Positions 5,794 to 22,339 of a stretch of 64,000 nt of DNA are shown in pieces. The notes below the pieces were generated by a model, which searched no databases, was not told the DNA's origin, and saw only the letters and a list, made by a program, of their open reading frames with translations. A program made the translations under genes and the position numbers. This stretch comes from Elusimicrobiota bacterium (GTDB taxonomy: Bacteria > CG03 > SLGR01 > PWQF01): positions 13,789 to 77,788 of the forward strand of contig PWOI01000179.1 of assembly GCA_003557485.1 (NCBI GenBank), given 5' to 3'. Within the stretch, counting starts at the first letter, position 1, and each line of letters starts with the position of its first letter.

Positions 5794-6857
5794 AAAGGAT
5801 TATTATAAAATCTATTTTTTCTTTTGCCGCAATTATAATAGTTGCAACTGCTCCCGTATTCTCTGTTTTCGGAGACGGGCCCGGAAGCACAGGATATGAT
5901 TTTCTCAATATACCCATAGGTGCGCGCCGCATAGGAATGGCCGCCGGGACAGCCGTAACCGGAGATAGTGACATATACTGGTGGAATCCTGCCGGGGTGG
6001 CATATGTGGAAAGGCCAGTTGTGAGCCTGATGCATAACCAGTTTATAGAAGGCATAAGCCAGCAGAGAGCAGGGTTCACGTTTCCGATGGAGGGCATGTC
6101 GGCGGGCGCTGTTAACCTTACAATGTTGTCGTATGGTGATATAGACGGGTATGACTGGGACGGCAGTCCGACCGGAGGGGTTTCTGCCGGAAGTTACAGT
6201 ATATCCTATACTCAGGCAAAAAGATTTACTTATGATACTGCTGCTGGCTTAAGTTTAAAAGTTATACATGAACAGCTTGATGATGAAAGCGCCTTTGCCG
6301 CAGCTCTTGACGGTGGAGCTTTGTTTGAACCATATGAAGGAGTTTCTGTGGGGCTGGGATGGAGGAACCTCGGCGTAAGCGGTAATTTTATTGATGAGGC
6401 GCCACAGCTTCCTTTATCCTTGTTTTTCGGAGCCGGGTTGAGACTTAATTATTTTACTCTTTTTGTAACAGATATTTCTTATCTGGACGGAGAACTTAAA
6501 TATGGTGCAGGGGTAGAGCTTAGTCTATGGGACTCTTTCTTTTTCCGTGGCGGTTGGGAAAGTTTTGCTGATGTTGATGAGACCTTCCGGCTTGGAGCGG
6601 GCTGGAGCTTCCGGGGAACCGGTATAAATTATGCGTTTGCTCCTTATGATAAGTTCGGCAGTACTCATAGGATGGATATAAGCTTTCAATTTGGTGAGCC
6701 GCCGCTTATAGAGAGAATATACCGCAGGGGGCAGAGTTTATATAGGCAGGAGAAATTTGAAGAAGCCTGGGTTGAATTCAATAAGGTAAAAGCTTTAAAC
6801 TCCAGGTATAAACGCATAAATTACTGGGTTGAAAGAGTGGAGGATGAAATAAAATAA
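5790..6857 (+). CDS. FadL/TodX/PorV-family outer-membrane beta-barrel protein (355 aa), start overlapping the stop of the T9SS cargo gene (ATGA)
   Basis: Signal peptide followed by the N-terminal motif IGARRIGMAAGTAVTGDSDIYWWNPAGVAY, characteristic of the FadL/OMPP1 hatch region (G-x-G-x-A-x-x-A-D-D-A...NPA). Alternating amphipathic beta-strand pattern with a terminal aromatic residue. Position immediately after a T9SS cargo suggests a PorV-like shuttle. Confidence 0.6.
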   Translation: MKRIIIKSIFSFAAIIIVATAPVFSVFGDGPGSTGYDFLNIPIGARRIGMAAGTAVTGDSDIYWWNPAGVAYVERPVVSLMHNQFIEGISQQRAGFTFPMEGMSAGAVNLTMLSYGDIDGYDWDGSPTGGVSAGSYSISYTQAKRFTYDTAAGLSLKVIHEQLDDESAFAAALDGGALFEPYEGVSVGLGWRNLGVSGNFIDEAPQLPLSLFFGAGLRLNYFTLFVTDISYLDGELKYGAGVELSLWDSFFFRGGWESFADVDETFRLGAGWSFRGTGINYAFAPYDKFGSTHRMDISFQFGEPPLIERIYRRGQSLYRQEKFEEAWVEFNKVKALNSRYKRINYWVERVEDEIK

Positions 6858-7130: not shown

Positions 7131-8726
7131 ATGAACAAACTGTTTAAAAATTTAACGGTTTTTTGCCTGGCCCTTATTTACGCGGCCGCGCTGGGGTGGC
7201 TTTGCGTTGGACTGGTTTTTGCCGGTAGCGGCGGAATGCCTGGCGCTTTTATGTCCTGGGGAGCAGGCGCAAGGTCCCTGGGAATGGGAAAGGCTTTTGT
7301 TTCAATTGCTGATGATGCTACGGCTGCGTACTGGAACCCGGCAGGGCTTGCCGGTATTTCCCGTCCCGAACTGACGGCCCTGCATACAATACTCTGGGGC
7401 GGCACGGTTTATGATTTTATAAGTTATGTTCAGCCTACAGAATTCGGGGGGACCTTCGGATTCAGCGGGACCAGGTTGTTTTTGGGCGGTATCGAGGGAA
7501 GGGACTCAGATAACAGAAAAACTTATGACTTTGAAGACATACAGAGCGCTTACGGCATATCATACGGCCAGCGCGTGCTTGATAATCTTTCTGTAGGAGG
7601 CGGATTTAAACGAATGACGCATACTCTCGATGACCATACAAGCGGAAATTATACTATGGATATTGGAGTTCTCTATTCTCCGATTGACAGTCTCAGCCTC
7701 GGTATGAACCTGCAGAATCTTTTTGCAGTTAAGTTTGGAGATTCCACCGATACCAGCCTTCCTATGAACCTGCGCCTGGGCGCAAGCTATAGACTTTTAA
7801 GGGACAGGCTTCTTCTTGCTACTGATTTAGCCGCTTCGGTTTATGGATGGGATATGGGGCTTCCGGTTTTTATGGGAGCCGAGTACAAGGCTATGGATTT
7901 TCTTGATATAAGGTTTGGTGTCGACAGGGAAGAGATAAATATAGGCTTTGGTCTTACATATCTTGATTACGGGTTGGATTATTCATATGCTGCTCACGAT
8001 TTAGGCGGTTCCCACAGGGTTTCCGCAACTGTAAAACTAGGAAGCTCTGTCGAAGAAGCAAAGCGCCGTACTGCCCGGGAACGTGAAGCTGCCGGCGATG
8101 CAGCCTACAGGGCGGGGTTATTCAGAGAGGCTGCCGGATACTATGAGCGCGCTTATGCAATGGATCCTTCTGACAGGGACCTTGCCCGAAAGCTGAATCT
8201 TCTTACAAGAATAGCGCAGGTCATACCTTCTCGTGATGACGACACTCGCGAGGGTGAGCTTTTAAGGAGAGGGCTTAGGGAATATATAGAAGAAAATAAT
8301 ACCGACCTGCTTCTCCTTACACTGAACCATATGCTGGCCCTTGATCCCGGTGACCGTCAGGCGGAAAACCTGCTGCGACTTATCTCTTCAATAGAGGGTA
8401 TCAGCCAGCCAAGGATAAGGGTTGCTTCCGGAATGAGCCTTTCCGAATACAAGCTGCACAGATCTCTGCAACGGTTTTATGAGGGGGAATATGCCAGGGC
8501 GATAGAACTGGCGCAGGATGTTCTTGTTATTGAACCGCGCAACGCTGAAGCCTACAAAAGAATAGGTTCGGCTTTTTATGCAATAGGCAATGAAGAGAGA
8601 GCAGTAGAAAACTGGGAAGAATCGCTTAGAATTAATCCTGCGGATACCCAGCTGGAAAGGTTTCTTGAGAGAGTTCGTGGAGAAGAGGAGAGTCCTCCGG
8701 TAGAAAATATGTTAGATGAGTTTTAA
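7131..8726 (+). CDS. Outer-membrane FadL/PorV-like beta-barrel fused to a C-terminal TPR-repeat domain (531 aa)
   Basis: Signal peptide. GARSLGMGKAFVSIADDATAAYWNPAGLAG hatch motif, paralogous to the 5790 gene. Beta-barrel-like region to about residue 310, then about 200 aa of TPR-like helices (AYRAGLFREAAGYYERAYAMDP..., AYKRIGSAFYAIGNEERAVENWEESLRINP). Confidence 0.7.
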   Translation: MNKLFKNLTVFCLALIYAAALGWLCVGLVFAGSGGMPGAFMSWGAGARSLGMGKAFVSIADDATAAYWNPAGLAGISRPELTALHTILWGGTVYDFISYVQPTEFGGTFGFSGTRLFLGGIEGRDSDNRKTYDFEDIQSAYGISYGQRVLDNLSVGGGFKRMTHTLDDHTSGNYTMDIGVLYSPIDSLSLGMNLQNLFAVKFGDSTDTSLPMNLRLGASYRLLRDRLLLATDLAASVYGWDMGLPVFMGAEYKAMDFLDIRFGVDREEINIGFGLTYLDYGLDYSYAAHDLGGSHRVSATVKLGSSVEEAKRRTAREREAAGDAAYRAGLFREAAGYYERAYAMDPSDRDLARKLNLLTRIAQVIPSRDDDTREGELLRRGLREYIEENNTDLLLLTLNHMLALDPGDRQAENLLRLISSIEGISQPRIRVASGMSLSEYKLHRSLQRFYEGEYARAIELAQDVLVIEPRNAEAYKRIGSAFYAIGNEERAVENWEESLRINPADTQLERFLERVRGEEESPPVENMLDEF

Positions 8727-8738
8727 AGGAATCAAAGC

Positions 8739-10646
8739 ATGAATAAAATGATAAAAGTTCTGGTACTTCTTATGGCGCCCCTTTTTCTGGGCGCCTCTGA
8801 TTTTATGGACTATACAACTTTAATGAATCAGAAAATGGAAACCGAGAGGCGCCTTGAAGACCATCTGCAGGGAATTGTTTCCAGAATAGTCGGGGAAGGA
8901 CGTTCCACAGTTTTAGTCAGCGTAAATCTTTCCGACCTGAGCCGCAGCCGTGAAACTGTAGAAGAATGGCTTGAGCGGGGTGAGGATGCCGAAAGGCGGC
9001 TTCCGATGCGGGAAGAATACCTTCCCGGTATACCCCGCAGGGAAGATATGGCAGAAAGAGAAACGGAAGTCGCCGAGCGGGCCGGTGGAAAACGCCTCCA
9101 GGACGTAATAACTCTGCCTTCGGAATTTATAGAGAGTATGCGCATAAGCCTTATACTTGATTCCACTATATCCGAGACTGTAATCGCAACGGTGGAAAAC
9201 GTTATAACCGAGGTTATGGACCTGGATGCAGCCCGGGGCGATCGTTTAACTATACAGACAGTGGATTTTGCGGGTAGAACGGTAGATTTTATGGGTTTCC
9301 TATTTAATCCATATTTTTATGTTATATCCCTGGTACTTATAATTATAACCATACTCGCGCTTTTTCTTTTCGGGCCGCTGAAAAAATTTCTTTTCGCTAC
9401 TTTACAGACGATGAAAGACTTAAAAGGAATGAAGAGCGAAACCGAATACTCAGGAGGCGGGGGCGGGGGCGGGGGCGGATTTGGCATAACGCCGGACGGC
9501 GAAATTGAAATGGAAGAAGAGATAGAAGAAGATGAAGAATTGAAAGAGGGGGAAGAAGCAGATATAGAAGGCGAAGAAGAAGACGAGGAGTTTAAAAAGA
9601 TGACATATATACCGCTTAAGTTTCTGGAAAACAAGGATTTGAAGAAACTGGCTTACCTTTTAAGTTTTGAAAAACCGGAAGTAGGGGCTCTTCTTCTTAA
9701 ATATCTTTCGCCTCCGCGCGCTGCAAAAGTCCTCAGCTCAATTCCGGGAGAAGAAAGAACTATAGGAATAACAAGGGAGATTGTAAAATTTCAGAGAACT
9801 TCTAAGGAGGTCATGCAGAAAATAGATGAGTTTCTTAGCAGAAAAATAGATTACATTGCCGGCGGCGCCGAAAGTCTTGTGGAAATGATTGAAATGATGG
9901 ATGAAGAAAAAAGAGAGCAGCTCCTAAACCAGATTTCTTCTGAGGATCCTGAATTTGCCGAAAAAATTAAAAAGCGTATTTTCAGTTTTGAAAATATTGT
10001 AAATATGGATGACCCGTCCATACAGACACTAATACAGGAAATGGAGACTGCCGACCTTGGCGCAGCCCTTAAAAATGTATCTGAAGAAGTAAGAAACAAA
10101 TTTGTTTCCAATATGAGCGAAGGTGCGGCTGCTCTTTTAAAAGAGGAAATAGAATTTGGAAAGAAAATGACCGAGGAGCAGATAAAACAGAAACAAATGG
10201 AAGTTGTCGCAAAAATAAAAGATCTGGAGACGTCCGGCTCAATAGCACCCGTGACCGGCGCATCCAAAGAGGAATTATGGGTGGAAGAGCTGGGTGAGGG
10301 AGAAAAAGAAGGAGTTCTTGAGGAAATTATAAAGGCGGCCCAGGAAGCTTACGATAAGAAACAGGAACTTGAAGCTGCTGAGGCTGCCGGCCGTCAGGAT
10401 GATGAAGCTGCATTTGAAAGCTACCGTAAAGGTTTGGAACTCTATAAACACCAGGATTACGATAATGCAATAAAAGAGTTTAATAAATCCATTGCCTCCA
10501 ATCCATCCCTGTGGCAGAGCTATCAATATATAGGTTCCTGCTATCTTGCGCTCGATAATCAGGATGGAGCTAAAAAAGCCTACCGAAAAGCCCTTGAGCT
10601 TAATCCGTCAAACGAGCAGCTCAGGCAATGGTTGGAAAGTCATTGA
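8739..10646 (+). CDS. Membrane-anchored FliG-like protein (635 aa): signal/TM N-terminus, internal TM helix, poly-Gly and acidic linker, FliG middle/C-terminal-like domain, C-terminal TPR repeats
   Basis: Residues about 290-500 align with the FliG M/C pattern (KIKKRIFSFENIVNMDDPSIQTLIQEMETADLGAALKNVSEEVRNKFVSNMSEGAAALLKEEIEFGKKMTEEQIKQKQMEVVAKIKDLETSGSI versus FliG F-x-F-E-D-I...DDRAIQ...L-A-L-K-G-A-S-E-E...NMS-x-R-A-A-E-L-L-R-E-D...EEAQ-x-x-I...EEGEI). Hydrophobic segment FYVISLVLIIITILALFLFGPL. GGGGGGGGGFG and an E-rich run. TPRs at the end. Confidence 0.7.
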   Translation: MNKMIKVLVLLMAPLFLGASDFMDYTTLMNQKMETERRLEDHLQGIVSRIVGEGRSTVLVSVNLSDLSRSRETVEEWLERGEDAERRLPMREEYLPGIPRREDMAERETEVAERAGGKRLQDVITLPSEFIESMRISLILDSTISETVIATVENVITEVMDLDAARGDRLTIQTVDFAGRTVDFMGFLFNPYFYVISLVLIIITILALFLFGPLKKFLFATLQTMKDLKGMKSETEYSGGGGGGGGGFGITPDGEIEMEEEIEEDEELKEGEEADIEGEEEDEEFKKMTYIPLKFLENKDLKKLAYLLSFEKPEVGALLLKYLSPPRAAKVLSSIPGEERTIGITREIVKFQRTSKEVMQKIDEFLSRKIDYIAGGAESLVEMIEMMDEEKREQLLNQISSEDPEFAEKIKKRIFSFENIVNMDDPSIQTLIQEMETADLGAALKNVSEEVRNKFVSNMSEGAAALLKEEIEFGKKMTEEQIKQKQMEVVAKIKDLETSGSIAPVTGASKEELWVEELGEGEKEGVLEEIIKAAQEAYDKKQELEAAEAAGRQDDEAAFESYRKGLELYKHQDYDNAIKEFNKSIASNPSLWQSYQYIGSCYLALDNQDGAKKAYRKALELNPSNEQLRQWLESH

Positions 10647-10709: not shown

Positions 10710-13700
10710 ATGAATCCTGAAAACAACCAAAATCATAATAAAGGGCAGGGACTTCCCGGACCGCCTCCGCCTCCCTTTTCGGGAGATGCCGGGAAGAATC
10801 CTTCGCCCGGAATACCGGATATGCCGCCAATTCCCGGCTCTGCGCCACCCCCTCAGTCTATTGATGATGTTTTTACTCCTCAGGACCCCGGCATGGCAAA
10901 AGAAAAAAAACGTCCTTCTGAGAGAGAGAAACAGATTGAAGAAGAAATTTCCAGGCTGGACAGCCGTATGGAAAAAGAACGGCTTCAGCTGATGGAAAGG
11001 CTTAAGGAAAAAGAAAACGAAAACCTACGCCTGCAGGAACAGTTTCTTGAAAAAGAAAAAGAGGATGCCCGCCGTAAAAAGGAAGAGTTTGATAGATTGA
11101 AAGAAAAGCTTCATGAACAGTTTGTCGAAAAGGAAAATAAACTTAAAGAGGAAAGAGAACAGTGGCGCAGAGAGCTTGACGAAATAAGAAAAGAAAACAG
11201 AAGCAGACTTGCCCTTGAGCAGACGCAGAACCAGATCCGCATAGAGGCCCAGCAGCAGGCTCGCGAAGAATTTCAGCAACAGATGAAAGAAATGAAAAAG
11301 GAGCTTGAAAATGCCCGCCGCCGCGCTTACGAAGAGGCAATTAAACACAAGGAAGAAGAGAAAAATTCCATTAAGGTAGAGCAGGCCCTTAAAGAGGTCC
11401 TCCAATCAACTTCAATGAGCCAGAAAGCCGAGCAGGTTGAAAAGGAAAAAGAAAAACTCCGCGAAGAACTTTATCATCTTGAAAAAGAACTGGCATCCCA
11501 GAAAATTAATATGACTCGCAAGCTGCAGGAGAGCGAGAATTTAAGAGACAATATCAGGCTTGACTATCATAATAGGATCCGTGAAAGCCGGAGTCAGTAT
11601 GAAAGTAAAATTGCAGAGTTGAGAGAGACTGCTTCCGAGCTTGGCAATAAACTCTGGCAGGCCCGGAACAGCTATGAGAACAAAAAGGAGCTGTGGGAAG
11701 AAAGGGTCCGGGAAAATATTCAGGAAAAGGAAAATCTTACACTGCAGTACCAGAAACAGATAAGCGAACTCAGACTTGAATATGAACAGAAAATTACCGA
11801 TGCGTTAAGCGCAAAAGAATCTGCAGAAAACAGGTATTGGGGAATTAAGGAAAAATTTGATGAGCAAACGGTTGAGCTTAATTCGCGTATTAAAGAACTT
11901 GAAAAAGAGAAAGACCTTATAGAAAAAGAATACGGAATGAAAGTCGCCTCTCTTGAAAGCGCCCTTAATGAAGAGAAAGCCGAACTTGCTGCCCAGAAAA
12001 AGATAAGCGAGGAAAGACTTAACCGAATTAACGATGAACTTCACGCAAAGGAGAACAGGTATAAGGAAAAAATAAGCGATATAGAAATAAATTATTCCGA
12101 AAAAATCCAGAATATAAAAGAAAAATATAAATCCGGCCTTTCTGAAAATGAAAGAGAAATAGAAAAGCTTAAGGCGCTTCTGAAGGAAAGCCGTGAGAAA
12201 TTATCACAGAATTCCGGAGGATCTCACCGGGATTTTGAAAACAGCAAAAAAGAGGTAGAAGAAGCCCGCCGTCTAATGGAGAAGGAAAAGAACAGGTTCA
12301 ATTTCCGGCTCAGAGAAATAGAGAATGATTATGAAAAGCGTCTCTCTGAACTTAAAGTTAAAAACAGCCGTCTTGAATCAAGGATATCAGCCCTTGAAGA
12401 AAAAAGAGAGACCTCTATAGATAAATATAACGACAAGATAGAAGAACTCAACGGAAAAATAAATGAACTTAAAATTGAAAACGCAGCTTTACAGGGAGAT
12501 TTACTGAAAACCGAGAGGCAGATTGAGAGTTCCGACAGAGCTTTAGAGGATATGGCCCGCAAAAATGCCGAAATTCACCACCGCCTTGTCAGCAGCCGAA
12601 AAGAAAATGATGAGGACATTTACCGGTTGAGAGAAGAAATAAATTCTCTGCGCAGGGAAAAAACCGAAGCTCTTCTAAGGATTGAGAACGAGCATTCCAG
12701 GGAATCGGAACTCTATGAGAACCAGCTTCTTCAGGCGCGCAGGGCAACAGAGGATCTCAGGCGCGAAAAAGACCGGCAGATAGATTCAATTAAACAGCAG
12801 TTTGATAATTACAGAAAGAACTTTCAGTGGCTTAAACAGGAGTGGCAGCAGCAAAAAGAAGAACTCCGGGAAAATTTCAGCGTGAAGGAAAAGGGATATG
12901 AAAATGAGATAAAACAGCTTGAATCGGCTCTGAGCGAAGTGCAGAAACTGAAAACACATTCTGAAAGTGAACTTAACGCTGAAATTGAAGCTGTCAGGAA
13001 GGAAAAACAATCCCTGCAGGAAAAATTTGAATCAAAAATTCAGCAGATGAGGGATGAATTTGCAGCTAAAAAGACGGATCTTTATGAAAAACTGAATGAA
13101 AAACAAAGGAATATAAGCGAATTGGAAGCCCGTCTGGATACAGAAAGAGTTGACTATACAGCCCGGATCCAGCAAGCGGAAAAAGAGAAAACTGCTGTTT
13201 TGCGGGAAAAAGAGATCCTTGATGTAGAAACTGAAAAACTGAAAAAAGAGACTCATAGCCTCCAGCTCAGGTACGAAAGAGAAGCAGAAGAAAACCGTAA
13301 ACTGAGAGAGGCTCTTCATCATGGTGAAAAGAAGTACAGAAACGAAATAGGAAAGCTTAAGGAATACTACGAGAAAAACCTTGAATCCCTTCGCAGAAGG
13401 CAGGATGGTATTGCAAATGTAGAGTATGACAGCCTTGATACTGAGAATAGAGAATTGAAGCATCAGCTTAAGTCTGCTGAATCTGAGATAAGCCGGCTTA
13501 AGTCACAGCTTGTAGAAAAAGAAGAGGCTCAGGAAAAAATACAGGCTGAAATAGATAAATATACAGCAGAAATTGATGACCTTACACAGGAATTGAAGCA
13601 AAGACAGTCTGTTATTGAACAACTTGAACGGAAAGTTTCTGATATTGATGATTCGCAGGCTGTGCAGGAGGATATAAGCCAGCTTAAAAAAGAAAACAGC

Positions 13701-14618
13701 GAATTAACCGGACATTTGGAAGAATCATTGCGGGAAAGGGATATTCTTAAAGAGAAAAATGCCAGCCTTTTGTCGGAAAATGAAGCTAAAAAGCAGCAAA
13801 TAGAACAGCTTTCCCTTAAACTTGAGGAAAAAGAAAGCCAAATAGGCCAGCTTCAAGGTAAAATTCCCGGAGAAGATATTATATCCGGTAAGAATGAGGA
13901 AATAGCAGAACTTGAAGATGAAATTAAAGAGCTAAGGTCCGCCCTTTCGGATTCTGAATCTAAAATAAAGCAGCTTTCAGAGGCTGCATCCCGTGCGGAT
14001 TCTCTTATGGACAGCAAAAAAGAGATAGAAGAACTTTCCGCTTCACTTGCGGAAAAACATTTGAAAGAAATTGAAGAGAAAGAAAGAATTATAGAAGAAT
14101 TAAGAAAAGAACTTGAGGAGTCCCTTGAAGAACTTGAAGAGAGGGAGCAGCAGCCTGTGACCGATGGGCTTAAATCTGAAAGGCTGCAGGTTCTTGCCGG
14201 GGAGAATGCTGAACTCAAGGAAAAAATAAGAGAATTGGAGTCTCAGCTTGAGATAGGAATGGAGCAGCTTCGCAGTGAGAAGATGGTTCCGGAATATGAT
14301 ACAGAAAAAACAGACGAAAAAATAAAGCAAATCAATGAAAAATGGAGGAAAAAATGGGCCGGCCGCGAACAGAAAGTAAAAGATTTCATATCACAGGCAA
14401 AAGCCAGGCACAGCCAGCTTAAAGACAAGCTTCAGGTTGCTCTTGAAGACCAGAAAATTCTTTCACAGCTTGCAGAAAAGGAAAAACAACAGAAACAGAA
14501 GCTTGCTTCAGAGCAGGCCGAACTTATAAAAGAGCTTCAGGAAAGCAACAGGTCTTTTGTCAGTAAAATACTTGCCAAACTGAAAAAAGGCGGGCCTAAA
14601 GGCGTACTCATCCTTTAA
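10710..14618 (+). CDS. Giant coiled-coil protein (1302 aa): Pro-rich N-terminus followed by about 1200 aa of E/K/R/Q-rich heptad-like sequence
   Basis: Continuous ORF with a strong purine-rich coding strand. N-terminal PGPPPPPFSGD...PPIPGSAPPP. The remainder is low-complexity, charged and predicted alpha-helical. No enzymatic motif recognised. Confidence 0.7.
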   Translation: MNPENNQNHNKGQGLPGPPPPPFSGDAGKNPSPGIPDMPPIPGSAPPPQSIDDVFTPQDPGMAKEKKRPSEREKQIEEEISRLDSRMEKERLQLMERLKEKENENLRLQEQFLEKEKEDARRKKEEFDRLKEKLHEQFVEKENKLKEEREQWRRELDEIRKENRSRLALEQTQNQIRIEAQQQAREEFQQQMKEMKKELENARRRAYEEAIKHKEEEKNSIKVEQALKEVLQSTSMSQKAEQVEKEKEKLREELYHLEKELASQKINMTRKLQESENLRDNIRLDYHNRIRESRSQYESKIAELRETASELGNKLWQARNSYENKKELWEERVRENIQEKENLTLQYQKQISELRLEYEQKITDALSAKESAENRYWGIKEKFDEQTVELNSRIKELEKEKDLIEKEYGMKVASLESALNEEKAELAAQKKISEERLNRINDELHAKENRYKEKISDIEINYSEKIQNIKEKYKSGLSENEREIEKLKALLKESREKLSQNSGGSHRDFENSKKEVEEARRLMEKEKNRFNFRLREIENDYEKRLSELKVKNSRLESRISALEEKRETSIDKYNDKIEELNGKINELKIENAALQGDLLKTERQIESSDRALEDMARKNAEIHHRLVSSRKENDEDIYRLREEINSLRREKTEALLRIENEHSRESELYENQLLQARRATEDLRREKDRQIDSIKQQFDNYRKNFQWLKQEWQQQKEELRENFSVKEKGYENEIKQLESALSEVQKLKTHSESELNAEIEAVRKEKQSLQEKFESKIQQMRDEFAAKKTDLYEKLNEKQRNISELEARLDTERVDYTARIQQAEKEKTAVLREKEILDVETEKLKKETHSLQLRYEREAEENRKLREALHHGEKKYRNEIGKLKEYYEKNLESLRRRQDGIANVEYDSLDTENRELKHQLKSAESEISRLKSQLVEKEEAQEKIQAEIDKYTAEIDDLTQELKQRQSVIEQLERKVSDIDDSQAVQEDISQLKKENSELTGHLEESLRERDILKEKNASLLSENEAKKQQIEQLSLKLEEKESQIGQLQGKIPGEDIISGKNEEIAELEDEIKELRSALSDSESKIKQLSEAASRADSLMDSKKEIEELSASLAEKHLKEIEEKERIIEELRKELEESLEELEEREQQPVTDGLKSERLQVLAGENAELKEKIRELESQLEIGMEQLRSEKMVPEYDTEKTDEKIKQINEKWRKKWAGREQKVKDFISQAKARHSQLKDKLQVALEDQKILSQLAEKEKQQKQKLASEQAELIKELQESNRSFVSKILAKLKKGGPKGVLIL

Positions 14619-14622
14619 AAAA

Positions 14623-14850
14623 ATGATAAATGTGACCAAATTAAACGGCGATGGTATAATCCTTAACGCCGAACTTATAGAAACGGTTGAATCGCGCCCC
14701 GACACTCTTATAACCCTTACTACTGGAAATAAAATTATGGTAAAGGAAAAAGTTGAGGATATAATAAAAAGGGTTGAGGATTATAAAAGGCAGGTAAATA
14801 TGCTTACCCGAGAGAAGCTTAGTGCGTTGCTCAGGGAAGAAGAGGAATAA
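14623..14850 (+). CDS. flbD: FlbD-family flagellar-type protein (75 aa)
   Basis: MINVTKLNGDGIILNAELIETVESRPDTLITLTTGNKIMVKEKVEDIIKRVEDYKRQV matches the FlbD pattern (I-x-L-T-R-L-N-G-x-x-F-x-L-N-A-D-L-I-E-T-I-E-x-T-P-D-T-V-I-T-L-x-N-G-K-K-Y-x-V-K-E). Conserved flbD-motA-motB order. Confidence 0.7.
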   Translation: MINVTKLNGDGIILNAELIETVESRPDTLITLTTGNKIMVKEKVEDIIKRVEDYKRQVNMLTREKLSALLREEEE

Positions 14851-14853
14851 ATT

Positions 14854-15711
14854 ATGGACCTGACGACAGTAATAGGGCTTTCCGGAGGCATTATAATAGT
14901 TTTTACAGCGGTTGCTCTCCGTGGTGGTATGGCAGGCCTGCAGGGGTTTCTGGATATGCCTTCCGCTATGATTACTTACGGGGGAACCTTTGCCGCTCTT
15001 ATGGTGAACTATCCGATAGATAAAGTTGTAAAAGCCTTTAAAGTCGTCAAAAAAGTATTTACCGAACAGCAGGACGACCCTAACGATTATATTGAAAAAT
15101 TCCGCCAGCTGATTATCAAAGCCTCAAAACAGGGAGTTCTTTCCCTTGAGGAAGATATAAAAAAAATGGACAACGAATTTTTAAGAAATGGAGTTAAAAT
15201 GGTCATGGACGGCCAGAGCCAGGAGCATATAGAAGAAGAAATGGAGACTGAACTGGCATTTACCAGGGAAAGGCATAAAATAGGCCAGGAAATTTTTGTG
15301 ACACTTGGCACTTACTCCCCTGCGTTCGGTATGATAGGGACTATTATGGGTCTTATCCTGATGCTAGCCGACCTTCAGGATACTGCCCAGATAGCTGCCG
15401 GTATGGCGGTAGCTCTATTGACAACCTTTTACGGCGCCCTTGGCGCTTATCTTATTTTTCTTCCCATCGCCGGCAAGCTGAAAAGGCGTTCGGAAGAGGA
15501 GCTTTTTCTTAAAAGTGTCATAACCAGAGGCGTCATGTCCCTTCATGCGGGAGAGGTTCCTTCAATAGCGGTAGCTAAACTGCGCGCGTATATACCGAGA
15601 TCCTCTTTTATGGAGCCTTCCGGCACAAAAAAAGGGAAGGCTGACGAAAAAGAAGAAGGAAACAAGAAGAAAAAAACAAAGGTAAAATACCGTAAAAAGA
15701 AGAAGAAATGA
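14854..15711 (+). CDS. motA: MotA/TolQ/ExbB-family proton-channel stator subunit (MotA-like, 285 aa) with Lys-rich C-terminal tail
   Basis: MDLTTVIGLSGGIIIVFTAVAL...ITYGGTFAALMV N-terminal TM pair. C-terminal TM pair with the LGTYSPAFGMIGTIMGLI...LLTTFYGALGAYLIFLPIAGKL signature. Tail KKGKADEKEEGNKKKKTKVKYRKKKKK. Confidence 0.85.
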   Translation: MDLTTVIGLSGGIIIVFTAVALRGGMAGLQGFLDMPSAMITYGGTFAALMVNYPIDKVVKAFKVVKKVFTEQQDDPNDYIEKFRQLIIKASKQGVLSLEEDIKKMDNEFLRNGVKMVMDGQSQEHIEEEMETELAFTRERHKIGQEIFVTLGTYSPAFGMIGTIMGLILMLADLQDTAQIAAGMAVALLTTFYGALGAYLIFLPIAGKLKRRSEEELFLKSVITRGVMSLHAGEVPSIAVAKLRAYIPRSSFMEPSGTKKGKADEKEEGNKKKKTKVKYRKKKKK

Positions 15712-16562
15712 GCAAAATTGCCGCATTTAAGAGGAGTCTTCCTAAAGACGAGGGGGATATTGAGGTCGGTAAAGGCTCCCCCCCGTGGATGACTACTTAT
15801 GGAGACCTTGTTACCCAGCTCCTGATTTTTTTTGTTATGATGTTTGCGCTTGCCGCCACGCTCAATGAGCTGCAGTTGATAAGCATAAAACGCAGAATTG
15901 AGAACTACGCATACCAGAACCAGCTTGGCCATCTTATAATGCTCGATATTAACCCCAAAGGATTGGTAATAACCCTTAGCGAAAAAATGATGTTTGATTC
16001 CGGCCAGGCCGAGATATATGAGGATGCAAAAGCCATTCTCTCCGCAATAGCAGGTGAAATAATAGATGTACCCAATCCTGTCAGAATTGAAGGTCATACG
16101 GATAGCGTACCCATCAGTACAGATAGGTTTCCTTCCAACTGGGAACTGTCAACAGCCCGGGCGACAAATGTAGCAAGATATCTTGTAGAGAACCTGGAAT
16201 TTCCGCCTGACCGGATAGCTGCCGGGGGGTACAGTAAATACCATCCTGCGGTAGGAACGGAAATTGAAGATGAAATATTCAACTACAAGTTAAAAGTAAG
16301 AGAGGTTCCACAGCATTATTCCCTTGAGCTCAGGCGCGCATCCACTCCGGAGGAGGAAGACCTGGTTATGTTGAGAATAAGAGAAGAACAGCTTGAGATA
16401 CAACGGGAAATGCAGGGAATAATTATGGAGCATATACGTATTGCAAACCTTGATGCGGACAGAAGAGCCCGGAACAGGAGGGTTGACATAATAGTGGAGA
16501 GGATAGGCACTACTGTTGAAAGAAGAACGGATATCGCGGCGCCTGTTGCCGTTTCTCATTAG
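15708..16562 (+). CDS. motB: MotB-like stator subunit with OmpA-type peptidoglycan-binding domain (284 aa)
   Basis: PPWMTTYGDLVTQLLIFFVMMFALAA plug/TM motif. IEGHTDSVPI...FPSNWELSTARATNVARYLV...NRRVDIIV OmpA-like domain. Start overlaps the motA stop (ATGA). Confidence 0.85.
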   Translation: MSKIAAFKRSLPKDEGDIEVGKGSPPWMTTYGDLVTQLLIFFVMMFALAATLNELQLISIKRRIENYAYQNQLGHLIMLDINPKGLVITLSEKMMFDSGQAEIYEDAKAILSAIAGEIIDVPNPVRIEGHTDSVPISTDRFPSNWELSTARATNVARYLVENLEFPPDRIAAGGYSKYHPAVGTEIEDEIFNYKLKVREVPQHYSLELRRASTPEEEDLVMLRIREEQLEIQREMQGIIMEHIRIANLDADRRARNRRVDIIVERIGTTVERRTDIAAPVAVSH

Positions 16563-16720: not shown

Positions 16721-16726
16721 ATTTAG

Positions 16727-16754
16727 GGCCGCCTTTAAGGCGGCTCTTTTTTTT
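16727..16754 (+). terminator. Attenuator terminator 2: GGCCGCC-tttaa-GGCGGCT stem-loop plus U8, ending at the trpE ATG. The right arm contains the trpE SD-like AAGG.
   Basis: ggccgcc tttaa ggcggct followed by c tttttttt (16747-16754). ATG at 16755. Confidence 0.55.
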
Positions 16755-18209
16755 ATGCAAACAAAAATTATACCAGTAAGAGAAAAAATTGTAGCGGATT
16801 TTATAACCCCGGTTTCCGGGTATATAAGAATGGGAAGCGGAGATTATTCGTTTCTGCTGGAGTCTGCTGAAAAAGGAAAGGCCGGCAGGTTTTCTTTCGT
16901 AGGGTTCTGCCCCCGGCGGGTTTATGAACTCTACACTGACCGGGTAGATATTATGGAGAGGGCACAGGAGAATCCGAATGTTCTGACGCCTAAAAAGACC
17001 GTAAGAAGCAGTGACCCTCTCGCAGTAATTCAGGAAGTTCAGGACAGGTTTAAAGTTGAGGATAACGGCAGCCTTCCTCCTTTCTGCGGCGGGCTTGTGG
17101 GATACTCTTCATATGAGATGATTGAAACTTTTGAAAACCTTTGCCTTGAAAACCGGCCGGCTGCCGGGGAACCGCTCGGTGTTTTCATCTTTAGTGATGA
17201 AATAATCGCATTTGACCACCTTCACAATACCGCTGAGATAATAAAACTCGTAAGTGAAGAGGAGGGGGAGGATAAGGCCCGCCTACGCATACTGCAGATT
17301 AAGAACAGATTATTGAATACTCAGGTCCAAATAAAACCGATGGCGATGGCGGGCGAGGGCCGCCCTGAATATAAATCAAATTTTACAGAGAGTGAGTTTA
17401 AAAAGGGTGTTAACAAAATAAAAGAAGAAATTATGTCCGGGGAAATAATACAGGGGGTTTTCTCCCAGAGGCTCACAGCCGACGCGCCGGATGACGTTTT
17501 TGACTGCTACAGGGCTTTAAGGGTAGTAAACCCCTCTCCTTATATGTTTTACCTTAAACTTAAGGATACTGTCCTGTGCGGCTCTTCACCTGAAGTTATG
17601 GTAAAGTCTTCCGGCGGAAAAGCATGCCTGAAGCCGATAGCCGGCACGCGTAAAAGGAGCCTTTGCAGCAACGAGGAAAAAGAACTCAAGGAGGATCTAA
17701 AAAAAGACCCTAAAGAAATAGCGGAGCATATAATGCTGGTTGACCTTGGAAGAAATGATCTCGGGAAAGTCTGCAGTCCGGGCAGCGTTAAGGTTAAAAA
17801 TCTTATGGCGGTGGAAAAGTATTCGCACGTAATGCATATGGTAACAGAGATAGAGGGAAACCTGGCTGAAGGGATAGGGAATACGGATGTTTTTAAAGCA
17901 TGTTTTCCCGCCGGCACGGTGAGCGGCGCGCCCAAACTCAGGGCAATGCAGATAATAGACAGTCTGGAAAAAACACCGCGCGGGCCTTATGCGGGCGCAG
18001 TAGGTTATTTTTCTTTTACAGGTGATATGGATACCTGCATTGCAATAAGGACTATGGTGGTAAAGGGAAAGAAAGTTTTTATACAGGCCGGAGCGGGGAT
18101 TGTTGCGGATTCGGTCCCGGAGAAAGAATATATCGAAACTATGAATAAAGCCGGCGCTCTGCTACAGGCCCTTTATATGGCCGGCAGCGGGAAGGAAGAG
18201 AATTTATGA
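16755..18209 (+). CDS. trpE: Anthranilate synthase component I
   Basis: 484 aa. Chorismate-binding family motifs (FLLES...GRFSF, GTRKR, LVDLGRNDLGKV, GAVGYF). Confidence 0.9.
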   Translation: MQTKIIPVREKIVADFITPVSGYIRMGSGDYSFLLESAEKGKAGRFSFVGFCPRRVYELYTDRVDIMERAQENPNVLTPKKTVRSSDPLAVIQEVQDRFKVEDNGSLPPFCGGLVGYSSYEMIETFENLCLENRPAAGEPLGVFIFSDEIIAFDHLHNTAEIIKLVSEEEGEDKARLRILQIKNRLLNTQVQIKPMAMAGEGRPEYKSNFTESEFKKGVNKIKEEIMSGEIIQGVFSQRLTADAPDDVFDCYRALRVVNPSPYMFYLKLKDTVLCGSSPEVMVKSSGGKACLKPIAGTRKRSLCSNEEKELKEDLKKDPKEIAEHIMLVDLGRNDLGKVCSPGSVKVKNLMAVEKYSHVMHMVTEIEGNLAEGIGNTDVFKACFPAGTVSGAPKLRAMQIIDSLEKTPRGPYAGAVGYFSFTGDMDTCIAIRTMVVKGKKVFIQAGAGIVADSVPEKEYIETMNKAGALLQALYMAGSGKEENL

Positions 18210-18233
18210 TTCACTGCCGGCAAAGGAGTTGAA

Positions 18234-19244
18234 ATGATAGTTAAAAAGTGCATAGAAATCCTGATAGAGAAGAAAGACCTATCAGCAGAACAGATGAGAA
18301 AAGCTATGGAGGAGATAATGGACGGTAATGCCGATTCCGCCGTAATAGGGGCTTTTCTTTCCCTGTTAAGATGCAAAGGCGAGACAGTTGAAGAAATAAC
18401 CGCGGCCGCATCCGTTATGAGAGATAAGTCCGAAAAAATCAGTATAGAGGGAGACCTTCTGGATACCTGTTCAACCGGGGGGACAGGAATAAATCATTTT
18501 AATATATCTACGGCAGCTTCTTTTGTGGCTGCCGGGTGCGGCCTAAAGGTGGCAAAACACGGGAACCGGGCTGTTTCGGGCCGGTGCGGCAGCGCGGATG
18601 TACTTGAAAAACTGGGTGTCTGTATCCAGCTGCCTCCGCATCAGGTAAAAAAATGCATTGAAAAAGCCGGAATAGGTTTTCTTTTTGCTCCAATTTTTCA
18701 CCGGGCAATGAAAAATGTTGCGGTACCCCGCAGGGAACTCGGAATACGGACGGTTTTTAATATACTAGGCCCCCTGACCAACCCGGCAGGGGCCTCTTTT
18801 CAGCTTCTCGGAGTATTTGATGCGGAGTTAGCCGAACCGCTTGCGCGTGTGCTGGGTAATCTGGGCGTAAAAAAAGCTATGGTTGTTCACGGCGCCGGCG
18901 GAATGGATGAAGTATCTCTTGCCGGTCCGAGTTTAGTCTGCGAGCTTAAAGAAGGCGATGTCCGCCGGTATGAAATCGGTCCGGATGATTTCGGACTTAA
19001 AAGAAGCGGCATAGATGAAATTGCCGGCGGCAACGCCGAAATTAATGCATTAGCAATTAAAAAAATTCTCAAGGGAGAGAAGGGGGCCTTCCGGGATATA
19101 GTCCTTGCTAACACTTCCGCTGCTCTTGTGACCGCAGGGCGAGCGGAAAACTTTAAGGATGGAGTAGAAATTGCACGCTGCTCTCTTGATTCCGGTAGCG
19201 CACTGAAAAAACTTAAAGAACTTATATCAATTTCAGGAGAATAA
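18234..19244 (+). CDS. trpD: Anthranilate phosphoribosyltransferase
   Basis: 336 aa. CSTGGTG, KHGNRAVSG, GPLTNP motifs. Confidence 0.9.
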   Translation: MIVKKCIEILIEKKDLSAEQMRKAMEEIMDGNADSAVIGAFLSLLRCKGETVEEITAAASVMRDKSEKISIEGDLLDTCSTGGTGINHFNISTAASFVAAGCGLKVAKHGNRAVSGRCGSADVLEKLGVCIQLPPHQVKKCIEKAGIGFLFAPIFHRAMKNVAVPRRELGIRTVFNILGPLTNPAGASFQLLGVFDAELAEPLARVLGNLGVKKAMVVHGAGGMDEVSLAGPSLVCELKEGDVRRYEIGPDDFGLKRSGIDEIAGGNAEINALAIKKILKGEKGAFRDIVLANTSAALVTAGRAENFKDGVEIARCSLDSGSALKKLKELISISGE

Positions 19245-19825
19245 TGAATATTACAGTAATAGATAATTATGATTCGTTTGTTTACAACCTGGTTGATTAT
19301 ATGGGCAGGAGCCGCGGAGTGAAGGTAAGGATTTACAGGAACGACAGCGTATCTGCCACAGCTGTTATTGAGGAAAAACCTGATGCCGTGGTAATATCAC
19401 CCGGGCCCGGACGCCCGGAAAATGCGGGTATATGTATCGAGCTTATCAGGAAAATGCCGGACGGAATACCTTTACTGGGAGTCTGCCTGGGCCATCAGGC
19501 CATCGGAGCTGCTTTAGGAGCGGAGATAATAAGGGCGGCAAATATTTTTCACGGAAAGACTTCATCTGTCAGCCACAACGGCAAAGGGCTCTTCAATTCT
19601 ATAGAAAATCCGATGACGGCTACACGCTATCATTCACTTGTAATAGACAGAAAGACCCTCCCCGGCGAGCTTGAAGTTACCGCTGTTTCCGAAGACGGCG
19701 AAATTATGGGAGTAAAACACAAAACACGTAAAATATACGGCGTTCAGTTTCATCCGGAATCCATTCTTACGGAAGACGGACTAAAGTTAATGCGGAATTT
19801 TATGGATATAGCCCGGGAAAAATGA
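19244..19825 (+). CDS. trpG: Anthranilate synthase component II (glutamine amidotransferase)
   Basis: 193 aa. IDNYDSFVYNL, GVCLGHQAIG catalytic Cys, HPES. Confidence 0.9.
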   Translation: MNITVIDNYDSFVYNLVDYMGRSRGVKVRIYRNDSVSATAVIEEKPDAVVISPGPGRPENAGICIELIRKMPDGIPLLGVCLGHQAIGAALGAEIIRAANIFHGKTSSVSHNGKGLFNSIENPMTATRYHSLVIDRKTLPGELEVTAVSEDGEIMGVKHKTRKIYGVQFHPESILTEDGLKLMRNFMDIAREK

Positions 19826-20583
19826 CAGTTTTAGATAAGATAATTAAAAGAAAGAAAGAAATGCTTGCCGGGGGCAGGTTTCCTGGGGCGCCGCCCGCGA
19901 CTTGCGCAGAATATGAGAATTCCTTTAAAAAAAGGCTTACCGGAAAAGGCCTTTCAGTAATAGCTGAAATAAAAAGATGCTCTCCTTCTGCCGGGGAGAT
20001 TACAGAAAAAAGCGTTGAAGAACTCGCCGAAATTTACGCAGACAGTACCGCAGCCTGCATATCCGTTCTGACAGAAGATCTATATTTCGGAGGAAGCCCT
20101 GAAGATATTACAAAAGTTAAAAAAATAACCTCAAAGCCGGTTCTTATGAAGGATTTCATAATTTTTAAAGAACAGATCTACCTTGCCCGCCTGTGCGGTG
20201 CAGACGCAGTTCTTCTGATATCTTCCATATTAAGTGAAGAAGAGATAAAAATATTAAACGAGACAGCTAAGCAGTGCGGCTTGTCGGTATTGAATGAAGT
20301 ACATAGTCTGTCTGACATCAAAAAGCTGCAGGGTAACAAAAAGATTGAAATAACAGGTGTAAACAGCAGAGATCTTGTAAGCCTTAAGGTTGATGAATCT
20401 GTTCACGAAAAACTTATTCCCTTTCTTGACAGAAGAACGTTGAAAATTGCCGAGAGCGGAGTAAGCCGGCCCGACCGCGCGCGGCAGCTTGAGAATATGG
20501 GATATGATGCAGTTCTGGCAGGAGAGTCCGTTATAGTTTCTTCTGATCCGGCCGGAAAAATAAAGGAGCTTGGAGGAAAGTGA
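19822..20583 (+). CDS. trpC: Indole-3-glycerol-phosphate synthase
   Basis: 253 aa. IAEIKRCSPS...KDFII...NSRDL pattern. Overlapping start and stop with neighbours. Confidence 0.85.
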   Translation: MTVLDKIIKRKKEMLAGGRFPGAPPATCAEYENSFKKRLTGKGLSVIAEIKRCSPSAGEITEKSVEELAEIYADSTAACISVLTEDLYFGGSPEDITKVKKITSKPVLMKDFIIFKEQIYLARLCGADAVLLISSILSEEEIKILNETAKQCGLSVLNEVHSLSDIKKLQGNKKIEITGVNSRDLVSLKVDESVHEKLIPFLDRRTLKIAESGVSRPDRARQLENMGYDAVLAGESVIVSSDPAGKIKELGGK

Positions 20584-21203
20584 CTCTTCTTAAAATATGC
20601 GGAATAACAAGCTTCGAGGACCTGAAAATGTGCTTTGAAGAAGGTGCGGATATCGCCGGCTTCAACCTGTATCCCGGGTCGGTGAGATATATTTCGGAGA
20701 ATATGCTCAGGGATCTTGTGGCGGCCGCTACAGGTAAATCAGCTGTTGTGACAGTTGATATGGAACCGGAAAAACTGATAAATACAGTTAAAGACTGCAG
20801 ACCGGAATATATACAGCTCCACGGATCCGAAGATTACGGCTACTGCATGAAGATTAAGGACAGGTTCCCGGATATTAAATTAATCAGGAAAGTTACAATT
20901 GATATGAAAAATCAATTTGACGAAGTCCTTAAATCGGCGGATTTTATTCTATGTGACGTTAAAACATTTCTGCACGGTGGCACAGGGCTGAAGTTTGACT
21001 GGAAAATACTGCGCCAAGTTCCGGATGGGATAAAAAAGAAAATGTTTATTGCAGGGGGAGTTACACCGGAAAACGTATCGCAGCTTGCCGGGTTAGGACT
21101 GGCCGGTATAGATGTCGCTTCCGGCAGTGAAGTGTCAGCCGGTATAAAAGACCGCATAAAAATAAGAAAACTGACAGGAATAATAAAAAAGAGAGAAATA
21201 TAA
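20580..21203 (+). CDS. trpF: Phosphoribosylanthranilate isomerase
   Basis: 207 aa. KICGITS...QLHG...GGTGLKFDW...AGG. Confidence 0.85.
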   Translation: MTLLKICGITSFEDLKMCFEEGADIAGFNLYPGSVRYISENMLRDLVAAATGKSAVVTVDMEPEKLINTVKDCRPEYIQLHGSEDYGYCMKIKDRFPDIKLIRKVTIDMKNQFDEVLKSADFILCDVKTFLHGGTGLKFDWKILRQVPDGIKKKMFIAGGVTPENVSQLAGLGLAGIDVASGSEVSAGIKDRIKIRKLTGIIKKREI

Positions 21204-22321
21204 TGAAAAACGGATATTACGGAAATTACGGCGGGAGTTTTGTTCCGGAAACTCTTATAGAGCCTCTCAATGAGCTTATTGCAAATTACAAAAACCTTAA
21301 AAAATCACCACGGTTCAAAGCAGAACTGAAAAAGCTGCTTACAGATTTTGCGGGAAGGCCTACTCCGCTTTTTAAATCAGAAAAACTGTCCGCGCGCGCC
21401 GGCTGCGAAGTTTACCTTAAAAGGGAAGACCTTGCCCATACAGGATCCCATAAAATAAATAATGCTGTCGGGCAGGCCCTGGTAGCCAGGTTTTCCGGAA
21501 AGAAGAAAATAATAGCAGAAACAGGGGCAGGCCAGCACGGGGTTGCCGCCGCCTCCGCCGCAGTTGTAACCGGCCTTAAATGCAGGGTTTTTATGGGGGA
21601 AGTCGATATATCCCGGCAGCAGGAAAACGTAAGAAGAATGAAACTTTTAGGGGCCGAAGTAGTTCCTGTAAAAGAAGGAACCCGCACTCTCCGGGAAGCG
21701 GTAAGCGCAGCTATACGGAGCTGGGTTTCGGATCCCCGTGATTCTTATTATCTTCTGGGTTCCTGCGTAGGCCCGCATCCCTATCCAATGATGGTGCGGG
21801 ATTTTCAGTCTGTAATAGGAAAGGAAGTTAAAAAACAGCTCTCATACCCGCCGACACACTTGGTGGCCTGTGTGGGTGGAGGGTCCAATTCAATAGGGCT
21901 TTTTCATCCTTTTTTCGAAGATAGGAATGTGAAACTTATAGGAGTGGAAGCCGGCGGGGCAGCATCTATTAATAACGGCAGGATAGGGGTTCTTCACGGG
22001 ACCCGTAGCTACCTTCTTTACGGACGCAGCGGCCAGATAAAAGATACGCATTCCGTGGCTCCCGGACTTGATTATTGTGGAGTAGGGCCTGAACATTCCT
22101 ATTATAACGATATCCGCCGGGCTGATTATTTTACTGTAAGCGATGGCGGAGCGCTTAAAGCCTTCAGGTGGCTTTCGAAAAATGAGGGGGTAATACCTGC
22201 GCTGGAATCTTCCCATGCGATATGGTGGATGATGAATAATAAATTCAGCAAGGGTGACCGGGTTGTGGTTTGTCTTTCGGGAAGAGGAGATAAGGATCTG
22301 TCAGCCGCCGGTCAGGGTTAA
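21203..22321 (+). CDS. trpB: Tryptophan synthase beta chain
   Basis: 372 aa. PLP-enzyme motifs (HTGSHKINN, GAGQHGVA, GGGSNSIG). Confidence 0.9.
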   Translation: MKNGYYGNYGGSFVPETLIEPLNELIANYKNLKKSPRFKAELKKLLTDFAGRPTPLFKSEKLSARAGCEVYLKREDLAHTGSHKINNAVGQALVARFSGKKKIIAETGAGQHGVAAASAAVVTGLKCRVFMGEVDISRQQENVRRMKLLGAEVVPVKEGTRTLREAVSAAIRSWVSDPRDSYYLLGSCVGPHPYPMMVRDFQSVIGKEVKKQLSYPPTHLVACVGGGSNSIGLFHPFFEDRNVKLIGVEAGGAASINNGRIGVLHGTRSYLLYGRSGQIKDTHSVAPGLDYCGVGPEHSYYNDIRRADYFTVSDGGALKAFRWLSKNEGVIPALESSHAIWWMMNNKFSKGDRVVVCLSGRGDKDLSAAGQG

Positions 22322-22339
22322 AGAAAGTTGTGACATGAA

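Follow-up and report, generated by a model that had tools for sequence, protein, structure and literature searches.

A predicted coiled-coil protein encoded at a fixed position in an apparently non-flagellar rotor/stator gene cluster of Elusimicrobiota

AglZ and FrzS of Myxococcus xanthus are coiled-coil proteins that work in the cytoplasm as part of the machineries for gliding and social motility. In Zorya anti-phage systems, a very long intracellular coiled coil is carried by a 5:2 ion-driven motor of the MotAB family, as a tail that is part of ZorA itself. To our knowledge, flagellar rotor and stator proteins have almost never been seen at work outside the flagellum. According to one preprint, structural flagellar genes are missing from free-living Elusimicrobiota, which carry motAB, flbD and fliG of unclear role (10.1101/2022.07.08.499144). 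Here we describe a coiled-coil protein gene at positions 10710-14618 of a 64-kb stretch of an Elusimicrobiota bacterium genome (contig PWOI01000179.1 of assembly GCA_003557485.1; the whole stretch is referred to as the window). The gene lies between a FliG-like gene and flbD-motA-motB. It is a fixed, core member of this cluster, and its product is predicted from the sequence and a structure model to be a cytoplasmic, non-enzymatic, almost wholly helical rod with a coiled-coil signature. All features described below are on the plus strand, and nucleotide positions are those of the window unless a related locus is named.

An earlier note on this DNA had reported a 1302-amino acid (aa) open reading frame (ORF) at exactly these coordinates, and had described it as inserted between the FliG-like gene and flbD of a motor-like operon. 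The ORF starts with ATG, and its neighbors are as described: the gene upstream encodes FliG_M and FliG_C domains, and FlbD, MotA and MotB are encoded downstream. Comparison with related loci does not support an insertion. A locus scan of 185,579 species genomes gave 27 loci, six of which were dropped as ordinary 343-aa FliG genes. The 21 that were kept are in metagenome-assembled genomes (MAGs) mostly titled Elusimicrobia or Elusimicrobiota (some are titled uncultured Clostridia, Caldiserica, Sumerlaeota or Deltaproteobacteria, and those labels are unverified). The order PorV-TPR gene, FliG-like gene, long ORF, FlbD, MotA, MotB recurs in all related loci that are long enough to show it (about 20 distinct MAG loci). 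The slot between the FliF/FliG-TPR gene and flbD-motA-motB is filled in the window and in loci L001, L004, L006, L010, L011, L013, L015-L019, L023, L024 and L026. In the relatives, the ORF in this slot encodes 522-1655 aa, has an E+K+R+Q content of 40-57%, and begins with a basic stretch and a proline-rich motif. Because a positional equivalent occurs in all loci with enough downstream sequence, we conclude that the coiled-coil gene belongs to the core of the cluster and is not an insertion. The co-localization of homologs with motAB, which the note had proposed as a check, is thus observed throughout, and the absence from syntenic loci that it had considered as grounds for abandoning a structural role was not encountered.

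The genes of the motor cluster are arranged head to tail. Spacing is 4 nt between the coiled-coil gene and flbD and 3 nt between flbD and motA, and motA and motB overlap. The sole strong terminator-like hairpin stands 3' of motB (16725-16747; a 10-bp stem with 7 G-C pairs, followed by T8), where it would close the operon ahead of trpE.

The predicted protein combines a proline-rich N-terminus (19 of its 23 prolines are in the first 100 aa) with a long region rich in charged residues. Overall it contains 18.8% E, 12.4% K, 7.8% R and 7.2% Q; past aa 100, E+K+R+Q accounts for 41-64% and hydrophobic residues for 21-27% of each 100-aa bin. There are no cysteines, and the rod is acidic (net charge -38). 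Relative to shuffled sequences, hydrophobic residues recur with periods of 3.5 (z = 12.3) and 3.6 residues (z = 15.7), with no signal at periods of 2, 3, 4, 5 or 7. A monomer model of residues 1-1200 was generated using AlphaFold2 (AF2; mean predicted local distance difference test score, pLDDT, of 61), and only its secondary structure was used. In this model, aa 1-71 (10710-10922) form a disordered, proline-rich region without secondary structure (pLDDT about 30). About 93% of the remainder is helix, in six segments (72-228, 242-494, 507-980, 983-1050, 1058-1147 and 1158-1189), and no globular domain was predicted. Self-BLAST gave no off-diagonal matches, thus there are no detectable internal repeats, and an internal tandem duplication was rejected.

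No signal peptide, transmembrane (TM)-like segment, lipobox, sorting motif or LPXTG was identified in a scan of the whole sequence, thus the protein is predicted to be cytoplasmic. Pfam returned two sub-threshold coiled-coil-type matches and no enzymatic domain, and a phmmer search of the PDB returned no match at E up to 0.001. Profile searches with the conserved N-terminal domain against Pfam, NCBIfam and PDB found nothing specific, the PDB matches being only to the coiled coils of keratin, lamin, myosin and SAS-6. The proline-rich N-terminus, the E/K/R/Q-rich coiled coil and the lack of a catalytic motif had all been proposed from the sequence in the earlier note, and the analyses bear them out. 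It had also remarked on a purine-rich coding strand with many minus-strand ORFs. The coding strand is indeed purine-rich (63.6%, compared with 56% for the whole window), but the density of minus-strand open stretches of at least 60 codons is not distinctive (4.3 per kb at this gene and 3.9 per kb elsewhere).

Two ends and a few internal blocks of the protein are conserved, whereas the middle is variable. At the N-terminus, a short polar-rich stretch, basic in most orthologs, is followed by LPGPPPPPFSG (aa 15-25). A basic stretch and then (I/V/F)PxPPPP(P), typically (I/V/F)PxPPPPPPFSG, occurs at the same place in orthologs of both clades. The first long helix (aa 72-228, 10923-11393) opens the best-conserved block, where the conservation profile peaks (aa ~100-400) and where members of the closer clade share the motifs SExLRDNxRLxY and ELWEERxR. 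Within it, aa 199-234 (11304-11411; LENARRRAYEEAIKHKEEEKNSIKVEQALKEVLQST) lie directly ahead of the first helix break and constitute the only block conserved throughout both clades in the alignment. We consider this block to be the signature of the family. The consensus is L-x3-[KR][KR]-x-[AVI]-[YWF]-E-x3-K-x-[KR]-EEEK-x3-[KR]-[VM]-E-x-[AS]-L-x-E-[VI]-[LM], to which the window protein conforms; L199 and E224 are invariant, and E215-217 and L227 nearly so. A hidden Markov model (HMM) of the motif recovers orthologs on which it was not trained with E of 1e-21 to 1e-12, and the most distant, in L023, with 7e-5.

Two further blocks were identified in the closer-clade alignment. One is small and aromatic-rich (aa 690-730, 12777-12899; QFDNYRKNFQWLKQEWQQQKEEL), with collinear HMM matches at E of 1e-18 to 3e-21. 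In L001 it is at aa 664-704 of 1655. A symmetric, SMC-like hairpin with this block at its apex was considered and not adopted, as the distance from the block to the N-terminus is constant and the length of the C-terminal half varies. The other block forms the C-terminus (aa 1205-1302, 14322-14615), and its HMM matches the extreme C-termini of orthologs with E of 1e-30 to 7e-40. In the closer clade, these roughly 100 residues end in F[ILV]xK[IL]xxK[LF]...K.[IV][LVM][LI]L-COOH. The last 20 residues (aa 1283-1302, 14556-14615; FVSKILAKLKKGGPKGVLIL) form a cationic, amphipathic tail, a candidate membrane-targeting or docking peptide. In a scan with 11-aa windows, only those in aa 1283-1297 combine a net charge of at least +3, a hydrophobic moment (muH) above 0.5 and a mean hydrophobicity above -0.35. 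Most long orthologs have equivalent tails (e.g., KKFWQWLNKP and KKGFSLFKKK), with muH at the 97-100th percentile. The tails recall membrane-targeting helices of the MinD/FtsA type, a likeness that we take as a lead only.

The coiled-coil gene is the fastest-evolving member of the cluster. In comparison with the closest relative, the Elusimicrobia MAG locus L006, residues 24-331 have a ratio of nonsynonymous to synonymous substitution rates (dN/dS) of 0.087 and residues 332-1302 one of 0.150, with 0.034-0.053 for the five neighboring genes; these values are approximate, as dS is near saturation. Identity in the top BLAST segment is 69% where that of neighboring proteins is 88-94%, and 32-35% where neighbors are 54-75% identical. 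In the deeper clade, BLAST detects little or no similarity. With an HMM of residues 76-420, the positional equivalents are still picked up in collinear arrangement (E 3e-8 to 2.5e-4), and no other of 1560 ORFs is matched. Positional conservation in all related loci and a dN/dS of 0.09-0.15 argue that this is not a chance ORF, and the gene appears to be real and under purifying selection, with two to four times less constraint than its neighbors. In L006, where the neighboring proteins are 88-94% identical, one frameshift within a purine run interrupts the gene (positions 4420-4435 of that locus, aa 331/332). Given this location in a MAG sequence, and with the reading frame open on either side, it is likely an assembly error.

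Relatives are few. An exhaustive HMMER search with residues 103-1302 against 1.84 billion cluster representatives returned, at E up to 0.001, only nine proteins, each of them a fragment or ortholog within this family; SMCs, myosins and M proteins were absent. Word-indexed searches with the full protein and with an alignment of 16 N-terminal domains gave two matches each. These counts are uninformative regarding rarity: low-complexity E/K words evidently saturate the limit of 8000 candidates, and even the 70-83% identical protein of L006 was overlooked. The exact protein is absent from a collection of 15 billion proteins in which its neighbors (P0003 and P0029) are present; presumably, the gene was called there with another start or not called. 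Pfam scans of the N-terminal domain of 16 orthologs did not identify a shared family. We conclude that the protein founds a small, previously undescribed family.

The FliG-like gene directly upstream (8739-10646) encodes a 635-aa protein that would form the rotor. It begins with a hydrophobic segment (aa 1-23) and a region of about 160 aa, followed by a strong TM segment (aa 184-222), an acidic and glycine-containing linker, the M and C domains of FliG and a TPR domain (Pfam FliG_M, FliG_C and TPR). FliG_N is not present in the protein. In Foldseek comparisons with the PDB, the AF2 model (pLDDT 64) matches FliG MC (4fhr_B, E 2e-14), TPR proteins, and also the RBM3/S-ring region of the FliF MS-ring (7cg7_A, 6sd1_A and 8z4d_1, among others; E 2-7e-5, with a target TM-score of 0.5-0.58 across about 160 columns). 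There is a weak Pfam match to YscJ_FliF_C at aa 129-177. The model thus suggests a natural single chain, FliF(RBM3)-TM-FliG(MC)-TPR, with the topology of FliF. The TPR is cytoplasmic and is among the most conserved parts of the protein, with about 20 residues invariant even relative to a 36%-identical member. The FliM-binding site is degenerate and reads EKPE, where the canonical motif of FliG is EHPQR. The acidic pair of the torque helix is retained in NMSEGAAALLKEEIEF (KEEIEF), compared with NMSKRAAALLKDELEY (KDELEY) in T. maritima; the roles of the charged residues follow PMC7564593. The arginine preceding this pair, equivalent to R281 of E. coli, is replaced by a glycine that is invariant in the family (FliG_C, 9900-10300). 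Relatives of the FliG-like protein number 19 in an index of 5.8 billion proteins, and each source name given is Elusimicrobia.

Downstream of the coiled-coil gene is a 75-aa FlbD/SwrD-family gene (14623-14850; PF06289, E 6.9e-26). FlbD/SwrD is only beginning to be characterized: it assembles into a hexameric ring that bears charged tails, and MotA has been predicted, though not validated, as its partner (PMC13232269). MotA (14854-15711; Pfam MotA_ExbB) and MotB (15708-16562; Pfam MotB_plug and OmpA, i.e., a plug and an OmpA-like peptidoglycan-binding domain) complete the stator. This stator is of the flagellar type: MotA scores 202-233 bits with the NCBIfam MotP/PomA/MotA models, below their equivalog cut-offs, and 15.7 bits with ZorA. 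MotA carries a lysine-rich C-terminal tail (KKGKADEKEEGNKKKKTKVKYRKKKKK, 15600-15711) whose conservation is confined to the closer clade and which may pair electrostatically with the acidic rod.

Upstream of the rotor gene are genes for outer-membrane and giant surface proteins. Immediately 5' of the FliG-like gene, here and always in related loci, is a gene for an outer-membrane barrel of the PorV/PorQ family that carries a TPR at its C-terminus (7131-8726, 531 aa; NCBIfam PorV_fam 115 bits with a cut-off of 90, Pfam TPR and UPF0164). A second PorV/PorQ-family gene (5790-6857, 355 aa; 111.9 bits) precedes it. The window opens with a gene (1-5793) for a giant secreted protein of at least 1930 aa with FG-GAP and Ig-like domains (Pfam) and a C-terminal domain resembling a type IX secretion system (T9SS) sorting domain of type A. 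Its last 72 aa match TIGR04183 with 19.3 bits, below the cut-off of 23. A domain of about 85 aa ending in K(L/I)xI(I/V)R also closes 1900-2000-aa proteins in L003 and L004, and the same domain closes proteins encoded further upstream in L001, L003 and L004. The regions concerned are 1-7021 in L003, 1-7055 in L004 and 1-1651 in L001, and upstream supergiants were called at 17,658 aa (L003) and 8,258 aa (L004). Because this C-terminal domain and two PorV/PorQ-family genes adjoin the motor genes, the cluster appears to combine a motor of the flagellar type with cargo and shuttle components like those of T9SS. Elusimicrobiota is not a phylum known for T9SS.

The cluster shares features with several described systems and departs from each. 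Like AglZ and FrzS, the protein would be a long, non-enzymatic cytoplasmic coiled coil tied to an envelope machine driven by a MotAB/TolQR-type proton channel. The earlier note drew this parallel, and it is fair as a functional analogy, but it does not extend to membership. AglZ and FrzS begin with a (pseudo)receiver domain, and no Pfam match to Response_reg or any other domain was found in the window protein or in 16 orthologs. Sequence similarity is not detectable, and the motor partner is flagellar-type MotAB with a FliG-like rotor rather than AglRQS/Glt. As in the flagellar C-ring (FliG-FliM-FliN), the gene is directly 3' of the FliG-like gene and its product is predicted to be on the cytoplasmic side of a FliF/FliG-type rotor. 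However, it lacks the FliM/FliN (SpoA) domains and would be an extended rod, not a compact ring subunit. No match to Pfam or NCBIfam models of FliH, FliJ, FliK, FliM or FliN was found at E up to 0.01 in the window, or up to 0.1 in 16 orthologs. At the level of the operon, the combination of a MotAB-family motor, PorV-family proteins and giants with a T9SS-type-A-like C-terminus resembles the T9SS/gliding machinery of Bacteroidota (GldLM/PorLM, PorV and SprB-like cargo). The T9SS motor is GldLM, whereas the window encodes MotAB with a FliF/FliG-type rotor; the sorting-domain match is sub-threshold, the window showed no T9SS core genes, and a cytoplasmic coiled-coil protein has no counterpart in T9SS.

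Our preferred reading, offered tentatively as one that falls a little short of probable, is that the coiled-coil protein is a tether, strut or scaffold on a non-flagellar rotor/stator machine, an obligate structural subunit that replaces the missing FliM/FliN C-ring. The parts of this apparently non-flagellar machine are the single-chain rotor, the FlbD/MotA/MotB stator, the two PorV-like proteins and the giants with T9SS-like C-termini. The conserved N-terminal part, comprising the basic/polyproline motif and the aa 199-234 signature, would dock on the cytoplasmic face of the motor; the likeliest sites are on the FliG-like protein, at either its strongly conserved cytoplasmic TPR or its degenerate FliM-binding site. 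The fast-evolving, length-variable rod would act as a spacer, and the cationic amphipathic tail would bind the inner membrane or a second partner. In place of a C-ring, the protein may scaffold, space or restrain motor units. If fully extended, the rod would measure roughly 170 nm (about 0.15 nm for each of some 1150 helical residues). Cultured Elusimicrobia have been described as small cells of comparable width.

A fuller version, which we consider possible but doubtful, is that the protein is the cytoplasmic arm of an undescribed rotary envelope machine that descends from the flagellar motor, or is its cousin, and has no flagellum. FlbD-MotAB would drive a ring of the FliF-RBM3/FliG fusion, which would be coupled via the PorV-like proteins to the giants, moving or secreting them as a surface-adhesin conveyor or secretion system whose drive is of the flagellar and not the GldLM type, and the rod would replace the C-ring and link or gate the rotor.

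Several points weigh against the tether or scaffold reading. The AF2 model is of modest confidence (pLDDT 61) and, being that of a monomer, does not discriminate between a coiled coil and stretches of single alpha-helix; the maximum of the periodicity is at 3.6 residues, not exactly at 3.5. The three shortest orthologs (L013, L023 and L024) lack the amphipathic tail, thus membrane anchoring cannot be universal. We infer the docking site, the oligomeric state and the membrane binding. A rod fixed to the rotor at one end and to the membrane at the other would hinder continuous rotation. The absence of FliM/FliN or further flagellar genes was established for the 64-kb window, and beyond it rests on one preprint.

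The protein may instead be a landmark that localizes or clusters the machines, at a pole, at mid-cell or in arrays, outside the handling of force, a task that long coiled-coil organizers perform in other bacteria. Many landmark proteins share its anatomy of an unstructured N-terminus, a long coiled coil and a putative membrane-binding end, and fast sequence evolution and variable length would be consistent with such a role. The translational coupling to flbD-motAB and the presence in every locus fit a stoichiometric subunit better, and we regard a landmark as unlikely. It is rather improbable that the rod outputs torque, i.e., that it sits on the rotor or on MotA, is spun or twisted, and passes work or a signal into the cytoplasm in the manner of the ZorA tail. 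The retained acidic pair of the torque helix, the flagellar-type MotA/MotB with plug and peptidoglycan-binding domain, and the absence of axial or rod proteins in the window that could carry output outward are in line with this idea. Zorya and this cluster have in common a very long intracellular coiled coil tied to a MotAB-family motor. Here, however, the coiled coil is a separate protein and not an extension of MotA, and the PorV-like genes and giants with sorting-like C-termini point to an outward, envelope-directed output. Zorya itself was rejected using PADLOC, given the 15.7 bits of MotA to ZorA and the lack of ZorC/ZorD or ZorE effectors; the only PADLOC match of the coiled-coil protein was a 16.6-bit coiled-coil match to JetC.

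Rapid evolution and the L006 frameshift could also indicate a decaying remnant of an ancestral flagellar gene (FliH-, FliJ- or FliK-like) with no specific role, and in the flagellar operons of Firmicutes and spirochaetes the genes fliH to flgE do lie between fliG and flbD. With a dN/dS far below 1, an ORF intact in all other loci, motifs conserved across deep clades, no Pfam signal for FliH, FliJ or FliK in any of 16 orthologs, and a frameshift that is likely an assembly artifact, we find decay very unlikely. Surface coiled-coil fibers are common, and this operon encodes outer-membrane and giant surface proteins; nevertheless, an extracytoplasmic role, be it as an M-like surface fiber or as a periplasmic collar or strut, seems highly implausible. 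Both the M-like fiber and the collar were rejected as there is no export signal or anchor; moreover, the N-terminus is basic/polyproline and no type III export gate is encoded nearby. The parallel with spirochaete periplasmic flagellar collar proteins drawn in the earlier note does not hold for a protein predicted to be cytoplasmic. For an SMC/Rad50/MukB-type chromosome-organizing ATPase the probability is close to nil. The protein resembles SMC/Rad50 in overall size and in its long coiled-coil arms, and there are weak NCBIfam SMC/Rad50 matches (E 1e-9 to 3e-6). These reach 26-36 bits, with cut-offs of 567-1087, and involve coiled-coil stretches only. The protein lacks Pfam SMC_N, a Walker A/B head, a hinge and any cysteine for a CxxC zinc hook, and the missing ATPase head refutes this identity. 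The two identities that the note had named as fatal to a structural role, SMC and M-like protein, thus do not apply. The note's view of a structural and non-enzymatic protein holds; of the polymerization that a filament would entail, no sign was seen.

The remainder of the window consists of housekeeping genes, including the trp operon, accD, a Mur ligase-family gene (folC-like), tatC, rpsP, trmD, dprA and topA, among others. The trp operon (trpE, D, G, C and on to trpA) is 3' of the motor cluster both in the window (16755-23131) and in L001 (14612-20499). In L001, where the locus is 54-75% identical, a Wzy_C/TPR gene lies between the motor cluster and the trp operon. Also present are two ORFs without a Pfam match (23177-23779, 200 aa; 25838-27838, 666 aa) and a 234-aa LysM ORF (39661-40365) with a sub-threshold match to the C-terminal domain of flagellar FlgT (E 4.8e-4).

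In summary, the surrounding system is an undescribed variation on the theme of the flagellar rotor and stator. We found no description in the literature of the coiled-coil gene, of a natural non-flagellar FliF-FliG fusion, or of a cluster that combines T9SS-like and flagellar-motor components. The cluster is compact, with about eight genes. It retains only the RBM3 domain of the MS-ring, FliG MC, FlbD and MotAB, and adds the coiled coil, PorV-like proteins and giants. The coiled-coil protein is the one component without a known counterpart, and is key to the cytoplasmic connection of the rotor. If the cluster encodes a repurposed motor, it would represent a new way to power the movement or secretion of surface proteins. 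If it is a minimal rotor-stator module, it would inform the origin of the flagellar motor.

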